Translations under genes and position numbers: made by a program
Source of the DNA: a virus
Strand: one strand, 5' to 3'
IMG/VR virus record: IMGVR_UViG_3300031555_006030
DNA: 64,000 bases
Notes under the pieces: model-generated
The model's input: the letters and a program-made list of their open reading frames with translations, nothing else
What the model was told of the DNA's origin: nothing
Databases searched by the model: none
Part shown: positions 13,895-64,000 of the stretch, piece after piece
Numbering within the stretch: position 1 is the first letter of the stretch
Layout of the letters: every line of letters begins with the position of its first letter

Positions 13895-13914
13895 TTTTAA
13901 GGAGGACATATAGC

Positions 13915-14436: not shown

Positions 14437-14456
14437 TAAAAGGGAGGGAAATAGTA

Positions 14457-15494: not shown

Positions 15495-15504
15495 TTAAGA
15501 TAAA

Positions 15505-15550
15505 GCAAGAGGGAAGAGAAGATATACTTCCCTTCCCTCTTAAATTTTTT
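15505..15550 (+). terminator. rho-independent terminator after the capsid gene
   Basis: An agagggaag...cttccctct stem is followed by TAAATTTTTTA. Confidence 0.5.
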
Positions 15551-15573
15551 AGGAGATAAAAGGAGTTAAAAAT

Positions 15574-23211: not shown

Positions 23212-23730
23212 ATGAATTTTAAAGATTTAGATATTAAATTAATAAATGAATATAATACTTTTAACTTTAACGGTAATGAAATTAAAGTATTAAAATATCT
23301 TCCAATTGAAGATAAATTTGATTTAATTATGATTGCTCTTCAAAAATCTGTTACTAATGGTATTTATAATCCAATTAGACTTCAAACATTTTTTGAATTA
23401 AATATTATGTATCTTTATACTGATATTTTATTTGAGGTTGAGGAAAGAGTTGATGAAGGAGTACTTTATGATAAAATTAAAACATCGGGCCTCTTAGGAA
23501 AAGTGATGGAAAATATTGAAGAAAGCGAGATGCTTGAATTAAGTCACTTTTTGAGTGAGTGTTTAGAACTTGAAAAGAATTATCGCAATAGTGCGGCTGC
23601 AATTGTATCCAAAATTGTTGATGATTTGCCAAAGAACGCAGAAGCTGCAAAAGACATTGTTGATAATTTTGATAAAGAGAAGTATAGTGAAGCTTTAAAT
23701 TTTGCCAGATCCATTGGAATGAAGATTTAA
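23212..23730 (+). CDS. putative tail assembly chaperone
   Basis: 172-aa acidic TAG-free ORF directly upstream of the tape-measure gene. Confidence 0.4.
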   Translation: MNFKDLDIKLINEYNTFNFNGNEIKVLKYLPIEDKFDLIMIALQKSVTNGIYNPIRLQTFFELNIMYLYTDILFEVEERVDEGVLYDKIKTSGLLGKVMENIEESEMLELSHFLSECLELEKNYRNSAAAIVSKIVDDLPKNAEAAKDIVDNFDKEKYSEALNFARSIGMKI

Positions 23731-47455: not shown

Positions 47456-48319
47456 ATGTTCAATTCAACAACTGGATACTCTTTATCCGACATCGCTGCT
47501 GTAACAGGTAGCAATAGAGGAAATGGTGGTTTCGGTGATGGCTTCGGCGAAAACGGATGGTGGATCATCCTTTTATTCCTCTTCACTGGATGGGGAAGAA
47601 ATGGCTGGGGTGGAAACGGTGGATCTAATGATGGAAACGGATACATGATCAACCCTTATTTCTGCGGCTCAGCTCCATGTGCAACTAAAGATGATGTTCG
47701 TGCAGCCATTGATCAGCAAACTCTCGTTTCTAAACTCGATAACCAGACCTATGGTTTGGCCGACAGTACCTATGCATTAAGCAATGCAATTACAAGTGGT
47801 TTCCATGGAGTAGACAACGCTATCTGTACTCTTGGTTACCAAAATCAGGCTGGTTTCACTGCTCTTGGTAATCAGTTAGCTAATTGTTGCTGCGATACTC
47901 GCGCCGCAATCGCTGACGTGAAAACTCAAGGTGTGATGAATACCAACGTACTCTCAAGCCAGCTCGCCGCTTGTTGCTGCGACCTTGAGAAATCTTCTAT
48001 GGAAGATCGTTTTGCCGCTCAAACCTATAACTGCAATACGCTTCAAGCTATTGACAAACTTGGCGACAGAATCATTGACTTTATGACTCAAGACAAGATC
48101 GCTTCTCTTACTGCAGAGAATCAGTCTCTTAAGTTCGCCGCTTCTCAGGCTGCTCAAAATGCGTTTATTACTGCAAACCAAGATGCGCAGACTGCAGAGC
48201 TTATTCGTAGACTTTCTACTCCTTGTCCCGTTCCAGCATATGTGGTTCCCAACCCTAACTGCTGCTACGACTATCAAGTAACTAGAAACTACGGTTGCGG
48301 AAGCTGCTCTAGCTTCTAA
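47456..48319 (+). CDS. Gly-rich membrane protein with a YjcZ-like N-terminus and a Cys-rich (CCCD) C-terminal domain
   Basis: The N-terminus reads GNGGFGDGFGENGWWIILLFLFTGWGRNGWGGNGG, followed by CCCD repeated twice and CCYDY...GCGSCSSF. No TAG. Confidence 0.5.
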   Translation: MFNSTTGYSLSDIAAVTGSNRGNGGFGDGFGENGWWIILLFLFTGWGRNGWGGNGGSNDGNGYMINPYFCGSAPCATKDDVRAAIDQQTLVSKLDNQTYGLADSTYALSNAITSGFHGVDNAICTLGYQNQAGFTALGNQLANCCCDTRAAIADVKTQGVMNTNVLSSQLAACCCDLEKSSMEDRFAAQTYNCNTLQAIDKLGDRIIDFMTQDKIASLTAENQSLKFAASQAAQNAFITANQDAQTAELIRRLSTPCPVPAYVVPNPNCCYDYQVTRNYGCGSCSSF

Positions 48320-48345
48320 TTAATTAAATGGAGGCTTAGATAAGA

Positions 48346-48765
48346 ATGGAATTAACAGCTAATGCTCTACAAACAGTAGAGGTAAATCAGAATGTTTTAT
48401 TTACTGATACTCCCGTATGTGGTAGCTGTAGCATACTCCATCGTGATGGCAGTGGTCAAGTGACTCTTCGTGGAATCACTAGCCAATGTCGCGCAAGATT
48501 TAAGGCTTTCTTCAGCGGGAATATTGCTATTCCCGCTGATGGAACTGTTGAGGCAATCTCACTTGCGCTTGCGATCAATGGAGAAGCTATTGCATCTACA
48601 ACAATGATTCAAACTCCTGCAGCAGTTGAAGAGTTTGCTAATGTGGCTAGCGCAGTGTACATTGATGTTCCTGCAAATTGTTGTGTAACAGTCAGTGTAA
48701 GAAACACAAGTGCTCAAGCTATTGATATTCAAAATGCAAATTTAATTATCGAAAGGGTGGCATAA
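48346..48765 (+). CDS. BclA C-terminal-domain-like (C1q/TNF-fold) protein
   Basis: The C-terminus ...PANCCVTVSVRNTS...NANLIIERVA resembles the ...SIIIEKVA ending of BclA. No TAG. Confidence 0.45.
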   Translation: MELTANALQTVEVNQNVLFTDTPVCGSCSILHRDGSGQVTLRGITSQCRARFKAFFSGNIAIPADGTVEAISLALAINGEAIASTTMIQTPAAVEEFANVASAVYIDVPANCCVTVSVRNTSAQAIDIQNANLIIERVA

Positions 48766-48784
48766 TATGGAAAAATTAAAGTAG

Positions 48785-49483
48785 ATGAAAGAGGCGCTTG
48801 TGGGTTGCGTTCAAGGCCAGATCTATGGTAACATGGAAAAGGTTGATGCGCAAGAATTGGGCGCCGCAGTGGATATGATTAAAGATCTTTCAGAAGCCAT
48901 TTACTATTGCACAATTACAGAAGCAATGGAAGAAGAGGGCGAAGGAAAAGAAGAAAAAGGCAAGCACGGAATGATGTATTATCCTCGCACTACTCCAATG
49001 TATCATATGCCTTACCCTATTGAAATGTATGATCCTCGTTATAGAGAGAGATATAACTCTGGCTCTATGTACGCGCAAAATTCTGGCGGAAATAGCGGCA
49101 GTGGCTCTTCTAATGGTGGTAACAATGGATCTAACTCTAATAGCGGCAATATGCGCGGATATCATGAAGGTATGATGCCGATGGAAGAACCATGGCGTCC
49201 TATGTATAATGATGGTTCTATGTATGCAATGTATGAACGCGGTGGAAATCGCAATTACATGGAAGGAATGATGCGCGATCCTAGAGAAGGAAGAAGCGGT
49301 GAACGCCGCAAGATGTATATGGAAGGTAAAGGAATGAAGGATAAAACTCATCAAATGAAAGAGCTTGAAACTTACATGACCGAGCTTTCTCAAGACTTAA
49401 CCGAAATGATTCAGGATGCTTCTCCTGAAGAAAAACAATTATTACAACAAAAGATTAGCACTCTCGCAACAAAAATTAAATAA
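48785..49483 (+). CDS. low-complexity Met/Tyr/Gly-rich protein (spore-coat-like composition)
   Basis: It contains MMYYPRTTPMYHMPYPIEMYDPRYRERY and MYAMYERGGNRNYMEGMM. No TAG. Confidence 0.45.
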   Translation: MKEALVGCVQGQIYGNMEKVDAQELGAAVDMIKDLSEAIYYCTITEAMEEEGEGKEEKGKHGMMYYPRTTPMYHMPYPIEMYDPRYRERYNSGSMYAQNSGGNSGSGSSNGGNNGSNSNSGNMRGYHEGMMPMEEPWRPMYNDGSMYAMYERGGNRNYMEGMMRDPREGRSGERRKMYMEGKGMKDKTHQMKELETYMTELSQDLTEMIQDASPEEKQLLQQKISTLATKIK

Positions 49484-49485
49484 TC

Positions 49486-49806
49486 ATGTTCACAATAAAC
49501 GGAGAACAATGGTGGATAGTCTTAGTAATGCCATACGACGTTGCACTTTTAATGCCGAACGGTGACTTTGCTATTGGGGCGTGTAATGACTCTACTAAGA
49601 CTATTTATATCAGCAATGAACTTCATGGTGAGGCATTTGAAAAAGTATTGTGTCATGAGCTAGTCCATGCCGCTATGTTTGCATATGATGTTAGGTTAGA
49701 GCACGATGAAGAGGAGTTGTTAGCGGAAATAATCGCTACTTTTGGCGAGGAAATAATAGATTTGACTGATATAATGTTCGAGAGAATAAGAAGAGGAAGA
49801 TATTAA
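49486..49806 (+). CDS. ImmA/IrrE-like (DUF955) HExxH metallopeptidase-domain protein
   Basis: TIYISNELHGEAFEKVLCHELVHAAM matches the family pattern. No TAG. Confidence 0.45.
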   Translation: MFTINGEQWWIVLVMPYDVALLMPNGDFAIGACNDSTKTIYISNELHGEAFEKVLCHELVHAAMFAYDVRLEHDEEELLAEIIATFGEEIIDLTDIMFERIRRGRY

Positions 49807-49825
49807 AATCTTCCTCTTTTATTTT
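49785..49825. terminator. bidirectional hairpin terminator closing the late module
   Basis: aagaggaagat/atcttcctctt is followed by TTTATTTTT. Confidence 0.5.
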
Positions 49826-50334
49826 TACCATTCTAAAGCAGCACTATAATCTTTTTCTTTTTTTGGATGTAAATATGCATAACCAATACAGATAGCATCT
49901 GCTATATCATCATTAACTAAGGATAATCCATATGTTTGATTTGCAAAAGCTATGTCTTTTTGCTTTTTCTATTCTCTTTTTGACCCGCGCCCGTCTTCTA
50001 TTCCACATACTGAGCGCCAAGAGCTAGGATAAACTAATTCGATCTATACTTCAGGATGCTTATCATGCATTTCAATATGAATTAGCGCCTATAGATACAT
50101 TAAGGCTTTAAAGGTATTTGTATTTTTACTATGATCTGGAATAACTTCTTCCATCACAATCTTTTCAATGCCCAACTATTCTACTATTGCAAGAATATTA
50201 TCAACCATTTTATGTATTCTTTTATATAAATCATTTGAAGATGCTGTAATACAGCTCTATCCCATTAACTCTTTATCTTTAAAAATTGCTACTCCCGTGC
50301 TTTTTGTAGAGCAGTCTAGTGCAAGTAAATACAA
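49825..50334 (-). CDS. RuvC-like Holliday junction resolvase (contains five in-frame TAG codons)
   Basis: Manual minus-strand translation gives YLLALDCSTKSTGVAIF...DIADAICIGYAYL. It has a TTG start after GGAGGTG. The ORF track misses it because of the TAGs. Confidence 0.55.
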
Positions 50335-50360
50335 AATATATGCACCTCCATTCTAATCAT

Positions 50361-50389
50361 ATTATACTTGAAATTTTTTATAAAGTCAA
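50361..50389 (-). promoter_or_regulatory. consensus sigma-70 promoter for the RuvC-like gene
   Basis: The reverse complement reads TTGACTttataaaaaatttcaagTATAAT; a terminator hairpin at 50391-50418 lies just upstream. Confidence 0.55.
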
Positions 50390-50401
50390 AAAGAAGTAGC
50401 A

Positions 50402-50632
50402 TTATTCTGCTACTTCTTCGTTTTTATTCTTTTCATTCTCAACTGCTGTGTTATATTCAGTTTCAGCTTTCTTTAATTCTTGTTCTACAAGATTTGTAAG
50501 ATCTGCGCCGAGAGTATCAAAAATTGCCTTCATTTCGTATAGCGGAACACCTTGTTGAACAAAATAATTTACAGTATTGATTAAAGCATTTTGAGCTTCA
50601 TTGTGTAATAAGATTGCAGGTTTCTATGCCAT
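50402..50632 (-). CDS. hypothetical 76-aa protein with TAG as codon 3
   Basis: The sequence reads ATG GCA TAG AAA..., with an SD GGAGAAAGAAA; ends in TAA. Confidence 0.35.
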
Positions 50633-50649
50633 TTTCTTTCTCCTTGTGT

Positions 50650-51150
50650 TTAATTAGAGCCGGTTGATCCAAAACCACCTTCTCCACGAGCGGTAGTTCC
50701 AATATTATCTACTTCATCAAATACCACAGAGATATAAGGTTGAACAACAAGTTGAGCAATACGCTCACCATGTTCAATATATTGTAGTTCATTACTTTCG
50801 TTTTTTAGAGCCACGATAATTGGACCTCGATAATCTGCATCAATAACTCCGACTTTATTCGCGGGTGCAAGTCCTCTTTTTGTTGCCATACCAGAGCGTG
50901 CATAGATTGCGCCAAACGTGCCTTGAGGAAGCGCAATAGCAATGCCTGTAGAAATCTTGCGTACTTCGCCAGGAAGAATTGTAGCTCGATCTAAACTACC
51001 AAGATCAGCATGAAGATCATAACCCGCTGCCCACTTGCTACCTTGGGTGGGCGCATGTGCAGAAGGGGAAAGTTTTACATAATCAATATGAGTATTCCAA
51101 TTACCATTTTCATCACACGATTTTACAGTTACCATATCAAAATGCTCCAA
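50650..51150 (-). CDS. dut: dUTP diphosphatase
   Basis: Motifs AAGYDL, ARSG, GVIDADYRG and RGEGGFGSTG are present. Confidence 0.8.
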   Translation of the reverse strand: MEHFDMVTVKSCDENGNWNTHIDYVKLSPSAHAPTQGSKWAAGYDLHADLGSLDRATILPGEVRKISTGIAIALPQGTFGAIYARSGMATKRGLAPANKVGVIDADYRGPIIVALKNESNELQYIEHGERIAQLVVQPYISVVFDEVDNIGTTARGEGGFGSTGSN

Positions 51151-51388
51151 TCTTATATTCTACGCTTGCTTCTCCACAAGGCTCTTTAGCATCATCAAAT
51201 ACTTTAACTAAAGTTACAATAAAATATTCATCAATGATTTCGCCTTTTGCTTTACGCTCTTTTTTTACAGAAGAGTACTTAGAAAGTACATAACGCCCAT
51301 CTGCTTTGGCTGCACTGATAAGCTCTGTTGCTTCGGCTTCAGTGTCTGCGCGATGTTCTTCTGTTGTTTTCAATAAATATTTAGCCAT
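51137..51388 (-). CDS. hypothetical protein
   Basis: 83-aa ORF. Confidence 0.4.
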   Translation of the reverse strand: MAKYLLKTTEEHRADTEAEATELISAAKADGRYVLSKYSSVKKERKAKGEIIDEYFIVTLVKVFDDAKEPCGEASVEYKIGAF

Positions 51389-51409
51389 ATCCTTTTATCT
51401 CCTTTAGTA

Positions 51410-51676
51410 TTAGACATAATTAATTCTTATGTCATTAACTCCAAAATCCAGCATTGATTTCTCTTGAAACTCATGCACAAGCCCTTCTGCATAGCTATGG
51501 GTACCTGAAAAATCAAGACGATTAATAGTATATTTGTTAACTAGGGCTGTAAGAGTATCGCTTAAGTTTTCAGGCTCAACCCCCATTTGATCTATAAGGG
51601 CGCCATCTTTAAATACATAAAGTTTTTGAAAACGCTCGGTTGGCGAGGTCCAAATTACAATTCTATCGTATGTCAT
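51410..51676 (-). CDS. hypothetical protein
   Basis: 88-aa ORF. Confidence 0.4.
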   Translation of the reverse strand: MTYDRIVIWTSPTERFQKLYVFKDGALIDQMGVEPENLSDTLTALVNKYTINRLDFSGTHSYAEGLVHEFQEKSMLDFGVNDIRINYV

Positions 51677-51687
51677 ATTATATCTCC

Positions 51688-52116
51688 TTAATATTCAAGA
51701 ACGGCATTGCCATACGGAAATAAATAGTATGCAAAGCATCCTTCTTCATTACGAATCCATATTTCCCAAGAATTAGCATCTTGTTCATCAATAATTAATA
51801 AACTACCTCTATTTGTCATACAGTCAATAATATCTTCCACTGCCTGATAAATTGTCTGTGGTTTGGCTATTGCCCAAGAGCTAGTTTTGTCAAGATTAAA
51901 CAAAGTATAATCACGCAATTCGTGACATAGAAGCATTAAATACTTTTGATTAAAAATATTTGTAATCCATGTGCGTAAATGCTCTTTCGCTAATTGAAGC
52001 TCTGTAGCAGTTATTTCTGGTTCATTTTCCATTAATTGCTTATTAACTTCGTATAAACTACCAAAAGAAACCTCTGAAGTTCTCTGTGGAATTTTATCTG
52101 TATAATTGGCCTTCAT
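51688..52116 (-). CDS. hypothetical protein
   Basis: 142-aa ORF. Confidence 0.4.
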   Translation of the reverse strand: MKANYTDKIPQRTSEVSFGSLYEVNKQLMENEPEITATELQLAKEHLRTWITNIFNQKYLMLLCHELRDYTLFNLDKTSSWAIAKPQTIYQAVEDIIDCMTNRGSLLIIDEQDANSWEIWIRNEEGCFAYYLFPYGNAVLEY

Positions 52117-52171
52117 TTATTTTCTCCTTAAATTACTTATATTATAATTATAATTTAATTTTTTATATTTG

Positions 52172-52363
52172 TCAATCTTCTTTAATATATAAACCACAAT
52201 TACAGATTGCGCCAATGGGCGCCTCACGAAACTCTTTACACATGCATTTAGTGTCTGCACAGCGATAAATTTCAAGCACACAAGGACAATGACCTTGCGC
52301 CTCTTTTATTGCTGCACGAATAACGCTAGCAAATTCTGGATCTGCATATTGTTTTATTTTCAT
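52172..52363 (-). CDS. small Cys-rich (zinc-binding?) protein
   Basis: It contains CPCV...CADTKCMCKEF...CNCG. Confidence 0.35.
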   Translation of the reverse strand: MKIKQYADPEFASVIRAAIKEAQGHCPCVLEIYRCADTKCMCKEFREAPIGAICNCGLYIKED

Positions 52364-52842
52364 TAACTAATCCTTTCTGCATATTGATTTGGACTTGCGA
52401 GTTTTACTCCTAGCACTTCATCAAAATGAGATTCACAATTAGGAATATAGCGTCCAAATTTAACTACTATATTGGGAAACTGTTTTAATTGAGTTAATTC
52501 ATTTTCAATCTCATTTTTATTATAACCCGTGTAAATAACAATATCATCATCTATAGAATAACAATTACGAAATTGAAAAACAAAGTTGCGCAGATCTTCA
52601 ATAGAATCAAAAGGCTCTAGACCTTGGAATACCACCGCGCGCGTAATCGGATTTTTTCTATAGGTTTTAATAATACTTTCTATTGAGTAATTTAATAGTG
52701 GGGCATTAGCTAGTGGCCCATTTTGGCACACTGGCTTACCACATTCTTTATCGCATTTGAAACTGCAATAAGGTGATTCTATTGTCATACATGGCACTTT
52801 ATAATTAACAAAATCTTCAAATATAATGCCTCGTGTAATCAT
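52363..52842 (-). CDS. nrdG: anaerobic ribonucleotide reductase activating protein-like protein
   Basis: A Cys cluster plus an AVVFQGLEP segment resembling the GGEP motif; the start overlaps the nrdD stop (ATGA). Confidence 0.5.
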   Translation of the reverse strand: MITRGIIFEDFVNYKVPCMTIESPYCSFKCDKECGKPVCQNGPLANAPLLNYSIESIIKTYRKNPITRAVVFQGLEPFDSIEDLRNFVFQFRNCYSIDDDIVIYTGYNKNEIENELTQLKQFPNIVVKFGRYIPNCESHFDEVLGVKLASPNQYAERIS

Positions 52843-54776
52843 TTATTAATAGGCTCCCACTTTCTCATTTTATATTCATTTGTGCGCTCTTTTGACCAAG
52901 TCTTAATTGGTGTATAAAAACCAACAATTCGAGTATACTCTGTTTCAACAGGTCTACCACACTGAGGGCAAGTGCGTCCATAAAATGCATGATTATTGTC
53001 ACATGCTTGAATCTTTGTGTTAAATGCAAAATAAGTTACCCCAGCATCGGAGATATAGTTTACCATATCCCAAGCCTTTTCAAAGCTATCAAAGGGGGCG
53101 TCTATGTTTGCATGAAGAATGGAACCTCCGTTACAATAACCGTCAAACTCTGCGGCAATACGCACACGCTCTGCAAGAGTGGTCTGAATACCAAGAGGGA
53201 TAAACTGGTTGCCATAAAGAGGTAGATCAAAGACTTCTGCATTTGGATAGAAGAATTTATCTTTGCGCATTAGTTTCGCGGCGGCCGACTCTCCGGGAAT
53301 TTGCTCGGTATTAATGTGATAATCGGCACCCATTTCTGCTATAAATTCATCTGCTACTTGGCGCATTGTTTCAAAAATTAACTTACCAAGGCGAGAAGCA
53401 TCTTCTGTGTAGAATACATTGCCAAATTCATCAGTATGAGTATATCCAAAGCGTTTCATAGTTTCATATACTCCAATAAAACCTATTGTGTTATAAAGAT
53501 GCTCGAAATCAACCAGTCCATTGGAAAAATTTGGTAAAAGTCCTTTCTCAACATTGCGACGAATGATATTTCGTACGCAGTGTAAAGCTTCAAGATTAAG
53601 TCTTGTACGATACTTAAGTTGTTCAATATATTCTTCTTCTGTTTCAACATCAAGCGCAAGGCGCGCAAGATTGATTGTAGACACCTTTACAGAGCCAACT
53701 TTAAGTGCGGTTCCTCCGATACTATTAAAATAACCTAGGTCTTTAATATCACTCTTCAAACGGCAACAGTTAGAAAGTGAAGTTACAGAGTCATCAATAA
53801 ATAAATTACTATCAGACCAGCGCATGTTGTGCTTTACGGCCCAGCGTGCAAATTCTTCATCCTGGAATTTTCCTTCTTGTTTTAAAAGAGAGATTGAAAG
53901 GACTGGGAAAGTAAACATATTCTTGTCTCTAATATCAGCAACGGTTTCCATATACCACTTCTGGAATTCAATAACCTCTTCCTCATAGTCAATCATAAAT
54001 TCTCCATTGGGGAATGTACTGCCGCCAAACAGAGCTTCATAATAAGGATGGTCGAACACGCTTGTATTAGTAAACGCAGATTGCGACCCATCGCGAACAT
54101 ACGGTTGGTTCACCGCGTAAACAAAACGCTGGAAGTTTTGGCGCGCATATTTCTCTCCATTGCCACTGCTCTTGATACCGAGATAATCTTCTTCCATATC
54201 CTTGTGCCAGAAGTAATACATATAAGGAATAAGGTTAGGAAGACCAACGGCACCTGAAGAGCGATTAGAAGCGTAACTAATATATTCTTTAACAAAGTCT
54301 ACAAAAGTGGTTAAGTGTTGTGCAGGCTCTGGATTAAATGGAGCGCCGATAAAGTATAGTCCTTTTTCAGCTAGATCTTTAAGATCATAAGCGAAACAGT
54401 AATGTTTAAAGGTCGAAGTATCGGCATCATGCATATAGAGCTGTCCAATCCACTCTGCTCGTAACCACTCGTTTGCGCGCTTAAATCCAAAATGTTTTTG
54501 CATTTCATAGTGAATCTTATTATAAGATAACAATTTTCTATGAGGCTTAGGCATCTCATTTAATAGAGTAACCATATCCTTTTTACTAACATTGCTATTG
54601 CCATCAATGCTCGCATCTGCGACGACTTTAGTATCGATAAAGGAGCTAATAAAGTCAGTATAAGATAATTGTTCATCAGCGAATCCATTCAATTTTGCCA
54701 TTTCAGTACCAAATTCATCTTGCATTTTGTTATAAGCGGTAACAAAATTTTTTTTCAATTTAACATTAATTTCCAT
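52839..54776 (-). CDS. nrdD: anaerobic ribonucleoside-triphosphate reductase (class III)
   Basis: The C-terminus has a CPQCGRP zinc ribbon and the glycyl-radical motif RIVGFYT. The likely start is MEINVKL at 54776 (the track start at 54851 is too early). Confidence 0.8.
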   Translation of the reverse strand: MEINVKLKKNFVTAYNKMQDEFGTEMAKLNGFADEQLSYTDFISSFIDTKVVADASIDGNSNVSKKDMVTLLNEMPKPHRKLLSYNKIHYEMQKHFGFKRANEWLRAEWIGQLYMHDADTSTFKHYCFAYDLKDLAEKGLYFIGAPFNPEPAQHLTTFVDFVKEYISYASNRSSGAVGLPNLIPYMYYFWHKDMEEDYLGIKSSGNGEKYARQNFQRFVYAVNQPYVRDGSQSAFTNTSVFDHPYYEALFGGSTFPNGEFMIDYEEEVIEFQKWYMETVADIRDKNMFTFPVLSISLLKQEGKFQDEEFARWAVKHNMRWSDSNLFIDDSVTSLSNCCRLKSDIKDLGYFNSIGGTALKVGSVKVSTINLARLALDVETEEEYIEQLKYRTRLNLEALHCVRNIIRRNVEKGLLPNFSNGLVDFEHLYNTIGFIGVYETMKRFGYTHTDEFGNVFYTEDASRLGKLIFETMRQVADEFIAEMGADYHINTEQIPGESAAAKLMRKDKFFYPNAEVFDLPLYGNQFIPLGIQTTLAERVRIAAEFDGYCNGGSILHANIDAPFDSFEKAWDMVNYISDAGVTYFAFNTKIQACDNNHAFYGRTCPQCGRPVETEYTRIVGFYTPIKTWSKERTNEYKMRKWEPINK

Positions 54777-55437
54777 ATCTCCAATGATATCCTCCTGTTG
54801 TTTGTAAAATTCCTTGGCAACAACGAGATATATTTTCATGATGTAAGCCAAGTTCTTTCTCTGCTTCTGCTAGAGATTTAAAAGTTTTGTTTAGTTCTAC
54901 ACAATATACACTAGTAGTCCTTTGATCTATTGAAGATGGAATATTATTGGATAGAAAATCTTCATAGTATGCCCAATGAAATTTATAAGCAGTGTGTAAT
55001 TTACCACGACAGCAAGCAATAATGTTTGCATTTGCGAATCCTTTGAGTCGCTCAATCTCTTTGGCGCTATCAAAAATCTCTTGTGTTTCTAAACATATAA
55101 TTTTTCTTTTAGTTTTGCAACTGTTGCTCATTTTTTGACGAGATTCTATCGAATATTCATTATTTAATCCGCCACTTTTTATATTATAACCGTTATTTAC
55201 AGTATCATATTTTGTAATAAGCTCTTCTTTTTGATTTGCTTCTTGTAAAGTTAGGTTTTGACATAAAATAGTTTGTTCAAAATTATCCCAGCCATATTTT
55301 TTAATAGCATTATAAAATTTAATACAGCCAGTATAATTGGATGGATGGCAACGACGAGCCATATCTTTAGACTAACCAATGTATTTTTTACCATTTGTTT
55401 TATTAGTATAGCAGTAAATACAATATTGATTATCCAT
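54766..55437 (-). CDS. free-standing GIY-YIG homing endonuclease with TAG inside the catalytic motif
   Basis: The sequence reads MDNQYCIYCYTNKTNGKKYIG-TAG-SKDMARR. Two NUMOD-like C-terminal repeats follow. It overlaps nrdH by 8 nt and nrdD by 11 nt. Confidence 0.6.
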
Positions 55438-55639
55438 TAGCATGCTCCTTTAACCATTTTATAGCTTCTGGAAATTTATAAGTTACATTATCAACTTTAA
55501 GAATTGGCGCCGAACGGAATCCTAAAGCAACCATAGTCTCTTGGTCAGAGACAATTCTGTATTCAATTCCCGCTGAATCAAGCTTTGCCTTTAAGACAGC
55601 ACATTGCGGACATCCTGTGGAATATAAAGTAATATCCAT
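55430..55639 (-). CDS. nrdH: glutaredoxin-like NrdH
   Basis: It has a CPQC redox motif in a 69-aa protein. Confidence 0.6.
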   Translation of the reverse strand: MDITLYSTGCPQCAVLKAKLDSAGIEYRIVSDQETMVALGFRSAPILKVDNVTYKFPEAIKWLKEHANG

Positions 55640-55696
55640 TTCATTTTCTCCTTATCATTTAATTTTGTATTTATTATAAAAATTATAATAAATAAT

Positions 55697-56365
55697 TTAA
55701 TTATCTTTGACCTCGTTTTCAATTGATTCTGCCTTTGTCGCCATTGAGCTTTCCCAACGCATAATAGTCTCGAATGAAGTATCAGCGCCTAACGCCTCCC
55801 ACATTTCACTTATTGCATCAAGACAACTGTTTGAAGCAGTTAAAAGGTCTAAATCTGCGCCATCCCAGTTGTCAATTTGATACCTATCAAAATCTAAAGC
55901 AGAAAAATCTTTTTCATCAGTAAAGTATCGTCTACACATTTCAGCACAGTCAGGGACTTCTTCTCTATTAAGATAGCGCATTAAACGCTGTTTGTCAGGC
56001 GCAGTTACTTCAAAGACTATAACATCTAGTCGAGAGTCTTCAAGCAATGCTTCTACTCCTGCGGGATTAAACACTCCAATGTTGATTTTGTCTTTTGAGA
56101 GAGATTCAAGAGTAGTTCCATAGAACCAATCTCTAAACTCTGTTGCTTCAAGCATATCTCCATTAAGCACTTTGCGTGTAAAATCATTAAGTGAAATAAA
56201 GTGATAATTTACTCCCTCTACCTCACCCTCTCGTGCCGGACGCGTAGTGCAGCTGACAATAGGGTGAAACATGAGTGGATGAAGTTCACAAGTTGCCTTT
56301 TGAATTGAGTCTTTACCTGCGCCCGCTTTCCCTATGAGCGCAACTACTTGATATTTATTTTCCAT
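55697..56365 (-). CDS. guanylate kinase / nucleoside monophosphate kinase
   Basis: P-loop GKAGAGKDS, plus TTRPAREGEVEGVNYHFIS. Confidence 0.65.
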   Translation of the reverse strand: MENKYQVVALIGKAGAGKDSIQKATCELHPLMFHPIVSCTTRPAREGEVEGVNYHFISLNDFTRKVLNGDMLEATEFRDWFYGTTLESLSKDKINIGVFNPAGVEALLEDSRLDVIVFEVTAPDKQRLMRYLNREEVPDCAEMCRRYFTDEKDFSALDFDRYQIDNWDGADLDLLTASNSCLDAISEMWEALGADTSFETIMRWESSMATKAESIENEVKDN

Positions 56366-56537
56366 TTTTATTTTCTCCTTTTGTCTGTCTTTTTAAAAAT
56401 AGTTTACTTTCTTCTGTTGCTTGAGAGAGATATTTTTCTAAAATATCTCTCTCAAAAGCATAGTCGTAATTAACAACCATTTGATATGAATAACTATTTT
56501 CATAGTTTTCAATAGTTTTCTTTTCAATTATTATCAT
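56355..56537 (-). CDS. hypothetical small protein
   Basis: 60-aa ORF. Confidence 0.3.
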   Translation of the reverse strand: MIIIEKKTIENYENSYSYQMVVNYDYAFERDILEKYLSQATEESKLFLKRQTKGENKNGK

Positions 56538-57935
56538 TCTTCCATGTCCTTTCTTTCATGCACCAATTCCATATCGCGCCCATCATTGAAAAGCGAAATC
56601 TTATAGATTTGATGAGTAGGTGTGTGCTTATAGGTTTTGGTTACGAACTGATCACCTCGTCTAAAACCAGTTAAGAGTAGCATCGTTCCTCTCTTGAACC
56701 AGCCCTTCTCCGTCACCTTTTTAGACCCATCATCTTGAAGCTCCGACAATTGCTTCTTGTATTGCGCGTAATATTCTTTCGTAAACTTAACCGTTACAAC
56801 ACCCGAGGGGGTCAATAGGGTAATGGATGCTTTGTTATCATTCTTTGCGATTACAGTTCCAATGATTTTATGCGTTTTCCAAATTGGAATTTGTTGACCA
56901 TTGCGCTTAAAGTAATAATCAACTTCTGGCTCTTCTGGAAGCGCAAAGAAGTTTGAAATGCCATACTTGTAGGTATCAACATTCGCTAACTCATGCTCGT
57001 GATAATAGAAACACAAGGATTCCATTTCCCAAGAGGACAAAGAACCTTGGGCATATTTATTCCAAGCATCTATAAAGAGCTGCTTATTAAGTTCGTGCAA
57101 AACCTCGCTCTGATGCTCTTTTAACCAATCTCTGGCGCCATCCATTTGTTTTTGATAAATTCCATCCCAAGTTTTTTGTTGAATACAAGTTAAACCATTA
57201 ATAATCTCTAACTTTTCAATATCAAAGTTATCTTTATAGAATTTATCACAGGGTTCATCAAACACAAAATATTTTCCAACTTTTGTATTTGCTTTAAGAT
57301 ATTTATTAAACTCAAACACTCTGCGCTCAAAGTCAAGCGACTCTGGAACCAATCTACGCTGAATAAGTCCATTGAAGTTTTGTAAGGTTAATTTACTTTT
57401 AGGTTCACAAGCTTTCGATAAATAATATGCCATTACTACAAATCTTGGGTGAATATTTAACTCTTTACCCCATTCTATCTCAAGCTTATCAAAAGCGCCC
57501 GCCTTAATAAGAGAAATCATCTGCGTTTTATTAAGCGGACAGCGCTCCATGAAGTCTGCGATATTCGCGTACGGTCTGCCGCTTATTATCTGCTCAATAA
57601 CTTCACTATTGATTCCACTTAACGCTTTCATACCAAAAAGGATTTGATTATTTTCTACATCGGGTTTAAAACTAAATTGAGATTTATTTATGTCTACCAA
57701 AGACACATCGATACCAGCGGATAAAATATCACCAAGCGCTTTTGCCAGCTTAGTATAATCTGTCTGCTTGTCTTTTGCCTCTTCGTCATCATCCTCGTTA
57801 TCATATCCTTCAAGCGAACCACTATTGACAATTAAGTTTGCAGTATTCCAATAGATAGGATTCCATCTTGTGGCGGCGTATGCCGTCTGGAAACCAATGA
57901 AGCTGTAAGCGAGCGCATGGATAATACTAAAACTA
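56534..57935 (-). CDS. dnaE: DnaE-like DNA polymerase III alpha, C-terminal exon 2
   Basis: The in-frame sequence upstream of track ORF 56534-57706 reads FSIIHALAYSFIGFQTAYAATRWNP, matching the DnaE pattern [24 protein letters not shown]. The 5' boundary is approximate. Confidence 0.6.
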
Positions 57936-59125
57936 TCACGTAAATCCAGTATTCCTACTGGCGTAGACTATCTCTTACTTATCTTTGAGAGTAAGATAAG
58001 TACACCCATTTCCCGCCTCGTACCAATAGAGGAGGTACTTCCGATCTCACTCGGAATAGTCGTTACAGGGTTTTAAAGGATAACTTAATTTTTCATCATA
58101 AAAACATTCTCCAACCTTAATGCGGCGAACAGTTTCTTCGGAAGCTTTTACCATTTCTGCAATTTCTCTATTGGAAAAAGAAGTAGTTAACAAAAGCTCT
58201 TTAATTTTATTCGCGCGCTGTTCATTTGCAGATATTTTTCGGATTGGATAAGAAGGATATAATCCTTTTCTTAATGTTCCAGCATTAATTTTTTTAACAG
58301 TGGAATATCCTAATCCTAGCATTCTTGCAATTTCTGCTAAGCTATAAGTTGAATTTAATAGAAGTTCAATTAATTCATCATAGTCTTTATCCTCTTTATA
58401 GTATTTACAAAGTGGATATTCTTCATTTTCATCAAAATAATAAATACCATGATTTAGAGAAGAAATGAAAGAGGCGCTTGCGCCATACTTAATAGTAATA
58501 TCTAAAAATGGTGTTTTATCTTTGATGAGTTGCTTCATGTCTTGGATTTCTTCTTTTGTCCAGGTTCTAGCATGCTCTCGAGAATCTCCTCCCCAAGAAA
58601 CATTATATCCTTTGCCAGTACTGCAATGAGATTCTAATTTTTTAACCCAATATTTTTCTCTTTCATTTACTTCTTGGATATCTTCTGTGTAGAGCTTCTC
58701 AAGTAAAGATATTTCAAAAGCGGCTTCTCCATATTGTCTTATCTTTTGATGAATTAAATTATTATAAGATGAAGCCTTCTCATTGAAAGCGCATGAGCGA
58801 TGTTCTCTTACTCTTCTATTAAAATTGTTTGTTTGACCAACATATTTATGTTGATTAATTTTGTTTGTGTAGCAGTAAATATAATACATACCATTTCTCT
58901 CCTTTTTAATATTATATTACTGTTATCATTATCCTTTAATTTCCCACGGGATTGTCTGATAACAGTTAGGATATTTTTTGTATCCTCACTGTTATATAAG
59001 ATTTCCCCGTTAGCATTTATCTAAATTTGACCTTAATTTTAAAAATTTTTTAGATAAATACCCCACTGGTTAGTGGAAAAGGTGTATAGGGGCAAGTTTT
59101 TGTTTACCCCATTTGCGGGCCAATA
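57936..59125 (-). mobile_element. putative group I intron in dnaE (boundaries approximate)
   Basis: An S-like AAGAGATAGTCTACGCC at 57961-57977 and an R-like ACGACTATTCC at 58054-58065 can form P7 (GACUAU paired with AUAGUC). A P8-like hairpin CTTATCTT...AAGATAAG lies between them. The GIY-YIG ORF sits inside, and there are stops in all frames. Confidence 0.5.
58047..58889 (-). CDS. GIY-YIG homing endonuclease (intron-encoded; standard code)
   Basis: The N-terminus reads YYIYCYTNKINQHKYVGQTNNFNRRVREH; the C-terminus has a helix-turn-helix. Confidence 0.7.
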   Translation of the reverse strand: MYYIYCYTNKINQHKYVGQTNNFNRRVREHRSCAFNEKASSYNNLIHQKIRQYGEAAFEISLLEKLYTEDIQEVNEREKYWVKKLESHCSTGKGYNVSWGGDSREHARTWTKEEIQDMKQLIKDKTPFLDITIKYGASASFISSLNHGIYYFDENEEYPLCKYYKEDKDYDELIELLLNSTYSLAEIARMLGLGYSTVKKINAGTLRKGLYPSYPIRKISANEQRANKIKELLLTTSFSNREIAEMVKASEETVRRIKVGECFYDEKLSYPLKPCNDYSE

Positions 59126-61620
59126 CCATGCTTCCAAACATAATGACCCATGCATGGAGAGCTAGCTTGATCAAGAACTTGCTGTTGCAAAGCAGGGATC
59201 TTAGACATTTGCTTTTTTCCGACGATTTTTCTGGCGGCGTTGGCATCTGCAAGGCTAAACCCACAAATCTTAGGATCCATCAACATCTGCATCATCTGCT
59301 CCTGAGAAGGGGGAACGCCGTGAGACTTTAAGAAATAAGGTTTCAATACTTCTTGTTCCTCTTTTGTGAGTCCATATTCATCCATTTCTTTATACCAAAG
59401 GTTGATGTTATTCTTAAAACGAACATATTTTTCCATTGGTGTTTCCTGACCTTTTTCATTGGTCATAAGTCGCATCAGTCCATTGGCGTCCGCTAACTCA
59501 AGAATACTTGATGGACGAATCTTCTTAGCGGCTTGGGCGCCCACATCCGAGTCAAATTGAAAAAGACCTAATACTGCAACATCTTGGATTGGTTTCCAAT
59601 ACTTTTCTTCTTCAATGGGAAGAACATTCGGATGAAAATATTTATCATATATCTGGCGCAAGGTCATATCTGACTCTAACTCACCAGTCTCTTGCAGCAT
59701 GTTAATAGTCTCTACAAGCTTGTCTTGCACTTCCGTTACGAGGAAGTCGTATTTCACCATTCCAAGTGCTTCACAAGTGTGAAGGTCAAATTGCGTTATA
59801 ACTTCGCCTTTTGGCGTTCTCATGAAGGCGCCAAACTCATATGGATCTTCATCAAACAAGATTACTCCAGATGCGTGAGATGAGCGCTTATTCTTAAGAC
59901 CTTCAATCGAGGTCATAATTTCCAAAAGTCCAGGATAATGATTTACTTCTCTAACGAATGATGCTACTGGTTTACGATCTTTGTCTGGATTACCATTAAC
60001 AACATCACTAATACTCCACAAGAAACCACGCTCTTGCGGCACAAGAGAAGTTAGATACTGCGCCATGTCAACATCAATACCGTCTGGATATTCTTCACTA
60101 CGATATCCGCGGCAAGCGGTCAATATCGCGCTCTTTGTAGTCTCTGTACCAAAAGTTGCGATAAGTGTGCAACCCAAATTGGCGCGAGACAATTCATCAA
60201 TATTTGCATTAAACTTGGCGCCACGCTCCTCTTTAATCTTCTTAAGGATATAGGGTCTTTTACTCGGACATAGATCTAAGTCTATATCACCTAGCTCTAC
60301 TCTTTCCTTATTGAGATATCGCCAGAAAGGCAAGTCCCACTCAATCGGATCAAGCTGAGTAACTCCAAGAAGATAATGGTTTAGACCTGAGCAGCTTGAA
60401 CCACGACCGGCGCCAACCATAGAGCCACATTCCCAGAAGAGATTAATATAATGCTGAAGTGTAACAGGATATGCAAACATATTCGTTTCCAGCTTCTCAC
60501 TAATCGCTCTCTTGATATCTGCCTCTTCTTCAAGTCTTGAAAGATACTGTGTTTCAAGATGACCTATTTCCACTAATTTATTTACACATTCATTTACCCA
60601 ATATCTCTCAACGACATTATCTGAATTATACATATCATCAAGTATTGGAAACTCTGTTTGCTGTTGTCTTTTAGGATATTCTCTTACTTCAACTTTAGGA
60701 ATTCTTTGCTTATGTCGAATACTATAATTTTCAATTTTATCATAGATAGATAAGCTATTTTCAAATAAATTGCTAATATACTCATCATCATTGAAAGATT
60801 TTCGTAAGTTTTCAAAAATCTCGTCTTCAGTTTGAAGATAAGAATACTCATAGAAGCTATCTACCTCTCTCTCACCGCCCTTTGAATTAAGATACGCTTT
60901 ATGAACATATCTATCTTCCTTTGAGAGATAGTGCGCGTCACTACCAATTACCATTGGAATTCGCATTGCTTCAGAGATTTGACGCAACTTTTTATTAACC
61001 ACTATCTGATCTCTTGAAGCGGCGGGTGCGCATTCCAAATAAAAGTCATCTCTAAAAAGATTCTTACACCAAGAGATAAAATCAACTATATGATTATACT
61101 CTTGCTGTCTTGTTTCCATGTCAAACATCGCTTCTGCGCTTAACATATTTGCAACTGCTGTTGATAACTCTCCACCGAGACAAGCAGTTGTTGCTATAAG
61201 TGAACTTGGATATTTGTTTACGATTTCTTCAAGATCTGACTTAAGAGTTACCACTCTTTCCATACCACGATCCCAATAACTATTGAGCCAAGCGCGTGAT
61301 GATAATTCTCTTAATGCGCGCCACCCAGTAGCATTTTTAGCCAAAAGTATAAAGTGATAATACTTTTGACTCATATCTCTTGTATCACAGAGATATATTT
61401 CATTTCCAAGAGCAATTTTGAAATCAGGATGCTCTTCTCTTATCTTTTCGCCATAAAAACTTGCGGCTGGTAGATTACTTAACGACTCATGGTCTGTAAT
61501 ACTTATACCTGCAAGTCCAATCTTCACAGCCTTATCAATTAAATCTTCTACGCGGTTAATACTATCAAGCAGTCTTGTATTTGAAGTATCTGTGTGCGTG
61601 TGTATTTCAAATCGAAGCAT
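59104..61620 (-). CDS. dnaE: DnaE-like DNA polymerase III alpha, exon 1 (PHP, palm and fingers)
   Basis: It has the PHP signature HTHTDTS and catalytic aspartates in ELGDIDLDLC, plus QFDLHTCEALGMVKYDFL. The last ~10 codons before the stop at 59104 are probably intronic. Confidence 0.75.
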   Translation of the reverse strand: MLRFEIHTHTDTSNTRLLDSINRVEDLIDKAVKIGLAGISITDHESLSNLPAASFYGEKIREEHPDFKIALGNEIYLCDTRDMSQKYYHFILLAKNATGWRALRELSSRAWLNSYWDRGMERVVTLKSDLEEIVNKYPSSLIATTACLGGELSTAVANMLSAEAMFDMETRQQEYNHIVDFISWCKNLFRDDFYLECAPAASRDQIVVNKKLRQISEAMRIPMVIGSDAHYLSKEDRYVHKAYLNSKGGEREVDSFYEYSYLQTEDEIFENLRKSFNDDEYISNLFENSLSIYDKIENYSIRHKQRIPKVEVREYPKRQQQTEFPILDDMYNSDNVVERYWVNECVNKLVEIGHLETQYLSRLEEEADIKRAISEKLETNMFAYPVTLQHYINLFWECGSMVGAGRGSSCSGLNHYLLGVTQLDPIEWDLPFWRYLNKERVELGDIDLDLCPSKRPYILKKIKEERGAKFNANIDELSRANLGCTLIATFGTETTKSAILTACRGYRSEEYPDGIDVDMAQYLTSLVPQERGFLWSISDVVNGNPDKDRKPVASFVREVNHYPGLLEIMTSIEGLKNKRSSHASGVILFDEDPYEFGAFMRTPKGEVITQFDLHTCEALGMVKYDFLVTEVQDKLVETINMLQETGELESDMTLRQIYDKYFHPNVLPIEEEKYWKPIQDVAVLGLFQFDSDVGAQAAKKIRPSSILELADANGLMRLMTNEKGQETPMEKYVRFKNNINLWYKEMDEYGLTKEEQEVLKPYFLKSHGVPPSQEQMMQMLMDPKICGFSLADANAARKIVGKKQMSKIPALQQQVLDQASSPCMGHYVWKHGIGPQMG

Positions 61621-61623
61621 TTA

Positions 61624-61806
61624 TTACTCCTCATCTAAAGCGTTCTCAATTTCGTTACATTTATCTTCTATTGCTTGAATAATAAGCGCCATCGCAGGAA
61701 AGCTTAAACCTGCTCTATTCATATTATCTACAAATCGACAATCTTCACTCATTAAAAATTCTCTTACCTCTTGAATTGTTTCTCTGTCAATTGATGTACT
61801 AAACAT
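61624..61806 (-). CDS. hypothetical small protein
   Basis: 60-aa ORF. Confidence 0.35.
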   Translation of the reverse strand: MFSTSIDRETIQEVREFLMSEDCRFVDNMNRAGLSFPAMALIIQAIEDKCNEIENALDEE

Positions 61807-61903
61807 ATTTATTATTCTCCTTTCGCATACTTTTATATATAATAATTATAACTTATTTTTTACAATAAATCAAGCCGTATCACCTGATACGGCTTTTATT
61901 ATT

Positions 61904-62095
61904 TTAAAGCGTGTCTAAAATTATGCGCCAATTATTATAGTTGACTTCGGTTCTAATCATACGCATACCTCCTGCATCATTAACCAGCCATAAATTAGAT
62001 CCATATGGTGCAGGTTCAATTTCTGCTATAAAGCGTGTATTGATAATGATAGAATGGCTAGAATCATAGGGTTGAATTTCTACAAATTGCTTCAT
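61904..62095 (-). CDS. hypothetical small protein (the internal start abuts the upstream stop)
   Basis: ORF 61904-62134, trimmed to Met14. Confidence 0.3.
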   Translation of the reverse strand: MKQFVEIQPYDSSHSIIINTRFIAEIEPAPYGSNLWLVNDAGGMRMIRTEVNYNNWRIILDTL

Positions 62096-62334
62096 TATTC
62101 CCTCCAAATATGAATTGGTAAATTGTATCGGCAAGGAAAGACATTGATTATCTTTCGATCTTGACTATAAGAACAATAAACATCAAAACCTCGTTTCTTC
62201 ATTTGGTACTCAATAATCTCCTCTTTAAGCAAGCCAAGATGTGTGTAGTTTTTAGCTCTTTGCTCTTCGATATAGTTATTAAGATACTCAAAAGTTTCTT
62301 TTATTGCTTGTTCATATTTTTCTGTCATAGCCAC
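62095..62334 (-). CDS. hypothetical protein
   Basis: 79-aa ORF. Confidence 0.35.
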   Translation of the reverse strand: MAMTEKYEQAIKETFEYLNNYIEEQRAKNYTHLGLLKEEIIEYQMKKRGFDVYCSYSQDRKIINVFPCRYNLPIHIWRE

Positions 62335-62335
62335 C

Positions 62336-63514
62336 TCATTTCCGCACTATTACGCACTTATCGGCCGCTCTAGTCACAGCCGTATAAAGCCAGCGCTGGT
62401 GCTCTTCTTTCCCGAACGGGAAGTTTTCTTCAAATATCAACACCTTATCGAATTGTGAACCTTGAGCCTTGTGCGTCGTGATAGCGTAACCATAAGTAAA
62501 CTCTTTGGGAACCATCCAAGAAAGATTTTCACTTTTCATAAGGCGCCATTCGACTTTCTGATCAAGACTCTTTTTACCTTCGAGTATAAGTTTCTTATCC
62601 ATCATCAAATCATGGAAATATGAACCAGTCTCCGTAATAATATCTGTACGGATAATATTAAAAGTACCTCCACCATTAATAAAAGAAGGATATCGTAGTG
62701 TTTGAGCGTAGTTGTTACATAACACACCAATGGTTCCATTTATCAATGGGTTTTCATCATTATCAAGAATATCCCAATAGTTGCGAAGACAAATTACCTT
62801 ATCGCCTTCTTGAGGTTCCCCTTCGCGCCCAAGCAGCTCGCGCATATGATTATTAATCCCGATACGAGTATCATTTTTGGCGCATAGTATCTGATCTGCC
62901 CACATATACATACCTTCTACAAGGTCTGCTTTATCAATGATTTTTACATCTTTGCCATCAAGCAGCTCTAAGGGGCGTCCGGCGCGAATATCCATAGAGA
63001 CTCTTATAATCTCTGACTCTTGCGCTTGGCGATGAATTTCATTAAGGAAAACGTGCGGCTTATCGAGAAGATGGTTATCATCCTCAGGGTTAATAGGTGG
63101 AAGCTGAAATGGGTCGCCGAGGAATATTACATGAACCTGATGCCTTAAGAGCTGTTTAATCAAGTCTTTTGATACCATCGAGCACTCGTCAACTATAATC
63201 AGCTTGTAAGGTTCGATATCAGGCAATGGAAGTCTAAAGAAGGTTCCGTCAGACTTAGGTCTGTGTTCATAAAGCAGACGGTGAAGAGTGCTTACATTTT
63301 TATTACCTTTCTGTTGAAGAACATTACAAGCTTTGCCAGTAAAGCAGGCGTATACAACCTCATTCTCGGGGATCTGAAGTGCTGCGACTAAGAACTTAAC
63401 CAGGGTTGACTTACCAGATCCAGCATATCCCGAAATGACTGTATACTTTTCCCCTGCCTTATATCGTTGAAGTGCGATCGTAAGTCCAGTTAATTGCTGA
63501 TCGGTTAAGACCAT
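62336..63514 (-). CDS. Dda/RecD-like SF1 DNA helicase
   Basis: Walker A GYAGSGKST, Walker B LIIVDECSMV, and the motifs LGDPFQLPPI, TTHKAQGSQFD and LYTAVTRA. Confidence 0.75.
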   Translation of the reverse strand: MVLTDQQLTGLTIALQRYKAGEKYTVISGYAGSGKSTLVKFLVAALQIPENEVVYACFTGKACNVLQQKGNKNVSTLHRLLYEHRPKSDGTFFRLPLPDIEPYKLIIVDECSMVSKDLIKQLLRHQVHVIFLGDPFQLPPINPEDDNHLLDKPHVFLNEIHRQAQESEIIRVSMDIRAGRPLELLDGKDVKIIDKADLVEGMYMWADQILCAKNDTRIGINNHMRELLGREGEPQEGDKVICLRNYWDILDNDENPLINGTIGVLCNNYAQTLRYPSFINGGGTFNIIRTDIITETGSYFHDLMMDKKLILEGKKSLDQKVEWRLMKSENLSWMVPKEFTYGYAITTHKAQGSQFDKVLIFEENFPFGKEEHQRWLYTAVTRAADKCVIVRK

Positions 63515-63849
63515 ATTGCCTCCTTTACTTTGTCAAGAGTTTTCTCAAGGTCTTTATAATCTTCCTCCAGATCTTCGTATTTAACCATTAGAGTATCATA
63601 TTCTTCCTTTTGTTCTTTAATAGTATCTTCAAGAGCCTCGATTTCTTCTTCAAATTCTTCGCGTTCGGTTAAATCAAGATCGCTCACTGTGCTATCAACA
63701 GTATCATAAATATCTTTTAATTCGGCTTCACAAATATTTCTATCTGCGGCTGTTTCAAAGAATTGTGATTCATACTTGTAGCATCTTTCGATCAGTTGCT
63801 TTGTAATTTCTATCATTTGTTTATTAACAGGTAGTATTTTATCTTCCAT
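63505..63849 (-). CDS. hypothetical acidic coiled-coil protein
   Basis: 114-aa ORF that overlaps the helicase start. Confidence 0.4.
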   Translation of the reverse strand: MEDKILPVNKQMIEITKQLIERCYKYESQFFETAADRNICEAELKDIYDTVDSTVSDLDLTEREEFEEEIEALEDTIKEQKEEYDTLMVKYEDLEEDYKDLEKTLDKVKEAIWS

Positions 63850-64000
63850 TATTTATCCTCCAATTTATATCCGTATTTCTTTATCATCTCATCTTCTTTA
63901 TCCCACTCAATACAAGGCTTAATAGAGAAATAAACATACTGCGCTATAGCCCAGATTTCATTCGGTGGTGCTTTAACGCATCTCAGATTCTCTTTAGTAG

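Follow-up and report, generated by a model that had tools for sequence, protein, structure and literature searches.

We analysed a 64,000-nucleotide (nt) window of the IMG/VR record IMGVR_UViG_3300031555_006030, which derives from an uncultured, gut-type phage and in which gene timing is inferred from sequence. This phage segment consists of three blocks (Table 1), the last of which carries genes for replication and nucleotide metabolism. Three minus-strand genes in this block contain in-frame TAG codons amid neighbours that are free of them: a gene for a RuvC-like Holliday-junction resolvase (hereafter RuvC), a small open reading frame (ORF) and a free-standing gene for a GIY-YIG homing endonuclease. 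A preliminary description of this DNA had placed the three genes and their TAG codons correctly, and had proposed that their products require TAG read-through and would be restricted to late infection. Comparison with related IMG/VR contigs (labelled L001, L002 and so on) supports the requirement for read-through, on the basis of exchanges between TAG and CAA/CAG, conservation of the genes and a glutamine at RuvC codon 82, and leads to a weaker view of the timing.

Judged by its reading frames, the phage uses genetic code 15, in which TAG is read as glutamine. The plus-strand ORF at 23820-29423 contains 49 in-frame TAG codons and stays open only when TAG counts as a sense codon; in addition, TAG exchanges with CAA or CAG at identical alignment columns of RuvC, the endonuclease, the small ORF and nrdD between the window and its relatives. 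Two signs of code 15 were thus found, namely ORFs that are intact only with TAG as sense and TAG codons that align with glutamine in homologues. None of the called genes ends in TAG, with an ORF caller that accepted TAA and TGA stops only. The host is inferred to be a low-GC Gram-positive (Firmicutes-type) bacterium because of the consensus sigma-70 promoters, the strong AGGAG ribosome-binding sites (RBSs) and the distant kinship of the phage to Enterococcus and Enterocloster phages. A megablast search of positions 49000-62000 against INPHARED gave no nucleotide-level match, and the parts examined showed no code-change module in the form of a tRNA synthetase or a release factor. An exact-protein search with the helicase matched contigs shorter than 10 kb only, such as one of 5.9 kb, too short to extend the window.

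RuvC is the most heavily recoded of the three genes. Its TAG codons are codons 26, 53, 82, 97 and 121 (50259-50257, 50178-50176, 50091-50089, 50046-50044 and 49974-49972), and the frame contains neither a TAA or TGA ahead of its terminal TAA nor a frameshift. The predicted protein matched three PHROG families (phrog_159, 827 and 1770) at E values spanning 2e-20 to 6e-12, the best being phrog_159, annotated 'RuvC-like Holliday junction resolvase' (E = 2e-20). A PDB search with the single sequence found no match, whereas a profile of 8 family sequences matched RuvC of E. coli (1HJR, 1.1e-6) and of the lactococcal phage bIL67 (4KTW, 6.2e-6) over residues 2-158; the single-sequence score against the Pfam RuvC model (17.9) was below the cut-off of 22.2. 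The catalytic tetrad D7, E62, D143 and D146 is invariant in an alignment that includes the homologues of Enterococcus phage EF1, Enterocloster phage CB457P1, phAss-1 and MT838220, and these D-E-D-D residues align with the E. coli RuvC motifs 'IDPG', 'IEQV' and 'DAADAL'. Profile match and tetrad together identify the product as a RuvC-like resolvase, for which junction cleavage is predicted.

Several observations indicate that the RuvC TAG codons would be decoded as glutamine. Codon 82, which is TAG in the window, corresponds to an invariant glutamine across the family alignment, standard-code homologues included. The gene is present in four IMG/VR contigs with 83-88% identity and 3-6 TAG codons in each, and TAG swaps with glutamine codons at single columns (for example, YLqAL versus YLQAL and KKQKD versus KKqKD, with q denoting TAG). 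The ratio of non-synonymous to synonymous substitution rates (dN/dS) among relatives is 0.06-0.13 at a dS of ~1. On this evidence, RuvC is a genuine, conserved gene that would be completed only if TAG is read as glutamine.

RuvC also forms a transcription unit of its own. The consensus promoter that had been described for the gene is present, with 11 of 12 positions matching, and terminator-like hairpins insulate the gene on both sides. The -35 and -10 elements and the RBS are kept in L001, L003 and L004, and the flanking hairpins are kept in relatives, the upstream one in all of them with differing self-complementary stems. RuvC is thus predicted to be a monocistronic unit (terminator, promoter, gene, terminator) with a layout kept in relatives, and not a member of an early operon. 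In EF1, which uses the standard code, the RuvC homologue also comes after dut and is the final gene ahead of the convergent block. Because the dut-then-RuvC order is the same in EF1, the gene appears to stand in its ancestral place, and its TAG-rich state would have been gained in situ in this lineage.

The free-standing endonuclease lies between grx and nrdD, its start overlapping the grx stop and its stop overlapping the nrdD start. It matched phrog_314 (homing endonuclease, 3.6e-32) and another homing-endonuclease family (2e-11), and its C-terminal NUMOD/I-HmuI-like module matched PF22083 (36.7 bits; cut-off 27). The single TAG sits within the YIG-Q motif ('GKKYIGqS'), so that the sequence 'CIYCY...KKYIGqS' is complete only with TAG as glutamine; the Pfam GIY-YIG score is 21.1 bits against a cut-off of 22.6. 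An intron-borne paralogue in dnaE reads 'YVGQT' where the free-standing protein has 'YIGqS'. L001 and L002 encode the endonuclease at the same site with two TAG codons, one of which is the YIG TAG of the window, and its dN/dS is 0.076 (dS ~0.8-1.2 for RuvC and the endonuclease). It is missing from L003 and L004, where grx adjoins nrdD, indicating a presence/absence polymorphism. As with RuvC, conservation points to a genuine gene that would depend on TAG for completion.

This mobility raises the possibility that codon usage reflects the origin of the genes and not regulation, with the endonuclease bringing its TAG codons along and RuvC or the small ORF perhaps derived from a late module. The patchy occurrence of the endonuclease, the YIG TAG common to its copies and paralogues elsewhere in the relatives that also read 'YIGq' are in keeping with such an origin. 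However, the post-dut position of RuvC, shared with EF1, is explained more simply by vertical descent and in-situ recoding, and translation would still require the suppressor whatever the source of the gene. We regard origin as a quite improbable explanation for the set.

An operon that starts from the promoter at 52175 and includes dut ends with the small ORF. Positional homologues exist in L001, where the protein begins 'MAQ...' and the gene contains no TAG, and in L004, where it contains four; the gene is absent from L003. It evolves fast (20-26% amino-acid identity to homologues), which makes dN/dS uninformative, and searches of Pfam and PHROG with this ORF gave no match. We considered a downstream start at Met33, which would bypass the TAG, and rejected it as it has no RBS; AAGGAG stands 7 nt ahead of the start that includes the TAG.

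That the TAG-interrupted ORFs are decaying pseudogenes would account for their fragmentation under the standard code and for RuvC and GIY-YIG Pfam scores slightly below the gathering thresholds. Decay is hard to reconcile with the lack of any TAA, TGA or frameshift disruption, with full-length conservation in four contigs at the low dN/dS given above, or with intact catalytic residues and the retention of promoter, RBS and terminators. We give this explanation almost no credence; it was rejected for RuvC and the endonuclease, and is unlikely for the small ORF.

Table 1 Features of the window and of related contigs
Feature	Coordinates	Strand	Details
Block 1	1-5048	-	Small genes with strong promoters
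Block 2 (plus block)	5068-49806	+	Long ORFs open only with TAG as sense; TerL and portal PHROG matches
Block 3	49825-64000	-	dut, nrdG, nrdD, glutaredoxin, guanylate kinase, DnaE, SF1 helicase
Bidirectional terminator hairpin	49789-49820	both	Separates RuvC (-) from the last plus-strand gene (49486-49806)
RuvC-like Holliday-junction resolvase gene	49825-50334	-	TTG start, 169 codons, five in-frame TAG
RuvC sigma-70-type promoter	50361-50389	-	TTGACT-17-TATAAT, consensus match 11/12; followed by GGAGGTG and the start codon
Intrinsic-terminator-like hairpin and T-run	50390-50419	-	Closes the upstream operon at the small-ORF stop; insulates RuvC
Small ORF, no assigned function	50402-50632	-	76 codons, strong RBS (AAGGAG-7nt-ATG), TAG at codon 3 (50626-50624)
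17 TAG-free replication and nucleotide-metabolism genes	50650-63849	-	dut, nrdG, nrdD, grx, gmk, dnaE exons, SF1 helicase, small ORFs
Sigma-70 promoter	52147-52175	-	12/12 consensus; heads orf142-orf88-orf83-dut-small ORF
GIY-YIG homing endonuclease, free-standing	54766-55437	-	223 codons, TAG at codon 22 (55374-55372), between grx and nrdD
Group I intron in dnaE	57937-59105	-	1,169 nt; carries a TAG-free GIY-YIG endonuclease gene (58047-58889)
Gln-like tRNA(CUA) of relatives	L107 7086-7160; L110 7128-7203; L112 5313-5388	replication strand	Stand-alone promoter-tRNA-terminator unit

The contrast with the surrounding genes is sharp. Across the 17 TAG-free neighbours (3,921 codons), CAA or CAG occurs 140 times and TAG never occurs in frame, whereas the other two frames hold 74 and 59 TAG triplets. 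In the plus block (5128-49806), TAG occupies 194 of 596 glutamine positions (32.6%; Fisher p = 1.3e-21 versus the 17 genes). RuvC, with five TAG and two CAA/CAG codons, departs strongly from its neighbours (p = 4e-8), and its TAG density (5/7 glutamine codons) lies at the top of the late-gene range. Taken singly, the lone TAG of the small ORF is weak evidence (p = 0.03), as is that of the endonuclease (p = 0.07).

The plus block is predicted to be late because it contains PHROG matches to the large terminase (TerL) and portal; Pfam searches with ten plus-strand proteins found no match, and PHROG, besides TerL and portal, assigned a 'sigma factor' label. Yet the picture of the minus strand as a standard-code early strand, as first proposed, proved too coarse. 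Its replication genes are indeed TAG-free, but the plus block also holds ten TAG-free genes and is headed by sigma-70 promoters that match the consensus at 12 of 12 positions (5068, 10799 and 23142, all intergenic). Because these promoters are equally perfect, promoter type does not discriminate between early and late genes here, and code usage appears to be gene-specific and not strand-specific. The TAG-free genes within the TAG-rich late block lie at 12473-16152, 20466-21347, 23212-23730 and 47456-49806 on the plus strand; they include four consecutive genes after portal, probably encoding scaffold and major capsid proteins, and the last four genes of the block, which adjoin RuvC.

The 'sigma factor' label belongs to the gene that opens the plus block (5128-6297, three TAG codons), which directly follows a 12/12 promoter and matched PHROG 5767 at 1.7e-44 with no Pfam support. 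If this label is right, a late-gene transcription factor would itself need TAG read-through. In block 1, three minus-strand repeats (1134, 1930 and 3442, within 500-3450) precede small ORFs; each consists of a near-consensus extended -10 promoter and a conserved leader (ATAAGAGCAGTArGGGAGA...), and they look like immediate-early units.

Read-through would require a suppressor, and candidates were found among the relatives. L107, L110 and L112 encode a canonical tRNA(CUA) on the replication strand, whose anticodon loop is CUCUAAA/C and whose acceptor stem and D arm are Gln-like. A promoter (TTGACA/TTGATT-17-TATAAT) lies directly 5' of the tRNA and a terminator hairpin 3' of it, and the unit, which shortly precedes topoisomerase-like genes, falls beyond the stretch with homology to the window.

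Other tRNA-like genes of the relatives were also considered. An array of at least 17 tRNAs in L037 (3918-12415), interspersed with GIY-YIG endonucleases, contains no CUA anticodon and is separate from the tRNA(CUA) unit. Relaxed ARAGORN settings gave false positives only, such as a 'tRNA-Pyl(cta)' inside a small ORF of L003. Unusual tRNA-like genes occur at L024 9475-9544, L026 9468-9539 and L037 7281-7380 and 9003-9153: one has a 4-bp anticodon stem and the loop GTAGTAA, the loop of its orthologue is 8 nt long (TTTCGTTT), and another carries a 39-nt insert in the anticodon arm. The genes with the 8-nt loop and the 4-bp stem, and the tRNA whose 39-nt insert contains 'CCTAG', were set aside as suppressor candidates. 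In addition, a tRNA-Lys-like gene has an anticodon loop that holds an inserted second tRNA-like element ending in CCA.

These observations can be joined in an account that we consider reasonably probable as a whole, in which a code-15 phage gates certain products through its tRNA(CUA) and RuvC is the clear case. The suppressor would derive from tRNA-Gln and be encoded outside the window. Host RNA polymerase would transcribe both strands from consensus promoters, and at first only TAG-free ORFs would be completed. Until tRNA(CUA) out-competes release factor 1, ribosomes would halt at RuvC codon 26, small-ORF codon 3 and endonuclease codon 22; with growing amounts of tRNA(CUA), ORFs that contain TAG would be read through, and all three products would appear only after the code switch. 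Densely and consistently recoded and transcriptionally insulated, RuvC would behave as a late-class gene. Maintenance of its TAG density across ~1 synonymous substitution per site would fit a resolvase needed to debranch concatemers before packaging, and one that could be harmful during recombination-dependent replication. T4 endonuclease VII, a functional analogue, debranches DNA before packaging. The single TAG codons of the small ORF and the endonuclease may instead represent a low background that this lineage tolerates in non-core replication-block genes and that is common in homing endonucleases; they would delay these products too, but need not be adaptive and could be neutral or have come along with the element.

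A stronger version can be put forward only tentatively. In it, the code switch would act as a gene-by-gene post-transcriptional timer that overrides transcription-unit membership, the number of TAG codons (five in RuvC, one each in the small ORF and the endonuclease) would set the delay, and RuvC, under a constitutive host-type promoter, would stay silent until tRNA(CUA) reaches a threshold.

Several findings weigh against the gating account. No tRNA of any kind was found in the 64-kb window, and the suppressor is deduced from relatives with 75-95% protein identity, in which its consensus promoter may allow suppression to come early and make any delay short. The relatives also carry TAG in several replication-block genes, including nrdD (codon 19 in L003 and L004; two internal sites in L001) and genes for grx, a CxxC protein, a 344-residue ATPase and a 597-residue protein. 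The TAG excess of RuvC over the plus-block average reaches only p = 0.04, the RuvC homologue of phAss-1 has no TAG, indicating that a TAG-rich resolvase is not general in recoded phages, and the TAG-free endonuclease of the dnaE intron shows that endonuclease recoding is no rule even within the window. In the relatives' replication blocks, homing endonucleases contain 2-7 TAG codons, while DnaE, helicases, topoisomerase subunits and ligase exons remain TAG-free.

Because nrdD, grx and other replication genes of relatives carry TAG, TAG dependence is not diagnostic of late expression and can occur in genes on which DNA synthesis relies. Suppression probably builds up from early transcription, given these TAG codons and the location of tRNA(CUA) in the replication block behind a consensus promoter. 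The proposed restriction to late infection therefore finds partial support: a delay until the suppressor accumulates, which need not last into the late phase, is defensible, but the evidence stops short of 'late only' expression.

An early suppressor could also mean that TAG codons have no regulatory role. TAG would then be a slightly costly glutamine codon that arises by CAG-to-TAG transitions and drifts in genes weakly constrained for timing or level. Such drift would fit the gain and loss of TAG sites between relatives at synonymous rates, the sporadic single TAG codons in the relatives' nrdD, grx, ATPase and small ORFs, the consensus promoter of the suppressor in the replication block, and the weak significance of the single TAG codons in the small ORF and the endonuclease. 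Neutrality is at odds, however, with the absence of TAG from the 140 glutamine codons of core genes, which shows strong selection against TAG and decoding that is not equal at all times, and with RuvC, which keeps 3-6 TAG codons in every relative despite a dS of ~1 and exceeds the late-gene mean. We consider neutral drift unlikely, although it deserves serious weight.

The gating account has precedents in part. Borges et al. (bioRxiv 10.1101/2021.08.26.457843) reported recoding mainly in structural and lysis genes, with variable recoding of replication genes, and described a group I intron that lies in an early gene of Agate phages and whose homing endonuclease is recoded, for which they inferred late-only production; metaproteomic validation for code-15 gut phages is given in PMC9523058. 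The general idea of a recoded endonuclease in an early gene, and of variable recoding of replication genes, is thus already published. Our window resembles the code-15 gut phages of Borges et al., in which recoding was proposed to act as a translational timer, in that TAG is a sense codon in genes for structure and packaging, that the core replication genes fit the standard code and that, by extension from relatives, a phage suppressor tRNA is expected. It differs in having a heavily recoded RuvC in its own host-type unit and a late block with TAG-free islands. As in Agate phages, a homing endonuclease with an in-frame recoded stop lies amid early genes; however, the Agate case is TGA to Trp and intron-borne, whereas here the change is TAG to Gln in a free-standing gene, and the endonuclease of the dnaE intron is TAG-free.

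Phage phAss-1 (proposed Phassvirus group) and its standard-code relatives, EF1 and Enterocloster phages, are distant kin, with RuvC at 24-30% identity and dnaE, nrdDG, dut and RuvC on one strand. The phAss-1 group also reads TAG as Gln and carries a tRNA-Sup-CTA in its replication block, and Babkin et al. (PMC10607447) found that TAG in the dUTPase and nrdG genes varies among these relatives. It differs from the window in genome layout and tape-measure size, as well as in the TAG-free RuvC homologue of phAss-1. Compared with the RuvC-family resolvases 1HJR and 4KTW, the protein described here has a full-length profile match and the same tetrad and, by analogy, would be expected to debranch DNA before packaging; sequence identity is low, and its expression would be contingent on stop-codon suppression. 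The text of Borges et al. does not mention a resolvase, and we found no mention of a recoded resolvase in the literature that we searched. The specific new element is therefore the TAG-dense, promoter-insulated RuvC unit.

Several genes of the window and its relatives are interrupted by introns or inteins, with introns established by comparison with uninterrupted homologues. The dnaE gene had been described as TAG-free, which holds for its exons; the single in-frame TAG of its apparent downstream ORF lies inside the group I intron. Its P1 (GGGGU pairing with GCCCC), P10 (AAAACU pairing with AGUUUU) and J8/7-P7-like elements could be read from the sequence, and at the junction the product expected from splicing is identical to L004 DnaE, which is uninterrupted. 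Rfam found no group I intron or tRNA, either in the whole window at the gathering threshold or in 57600-59400 at a relaxed E value. The large terminase gene is also split (~8181-9222, plus strand): exon 1 ends in ...ATCCCT and exon 2 begins with ACCATGAAC, and the uninterrupted TerL of L022 reads over the junction (IIP|TLNVDRR). The 5' part of the insert is GC-rich and structured; the insert also carries an HNH endonuclease ORF with two TAG codons (8491-9210), ends in G and is probably a second group I intron. In the relatives, nrdD of L001 (4370-7519) and L003 (3675-6749) contains an intein of ~380 residues (C...HN|C), which nrdD of the window lacks, and the NAD-ligase gene of L086 is split by an endonuclease ORF with five TAG codons.

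Gene-by-gene code usage of the kind found here matters for annotation tools that give one code per genome block. If TAG truly delays RuvC, the locus would offer a compact natural test of recoding as a timer, with five TAG codons in one gene under a host-type promoter. The neighbouring operon, in which a single predicted mRNA carries both dut, free of TAG, and the small ORF, whose codon 3 is TAG, would form part of that test. If the timer reading were true, branched replication intermediates would be shielded early in infection, and their debranching would be released at the start of packaging.

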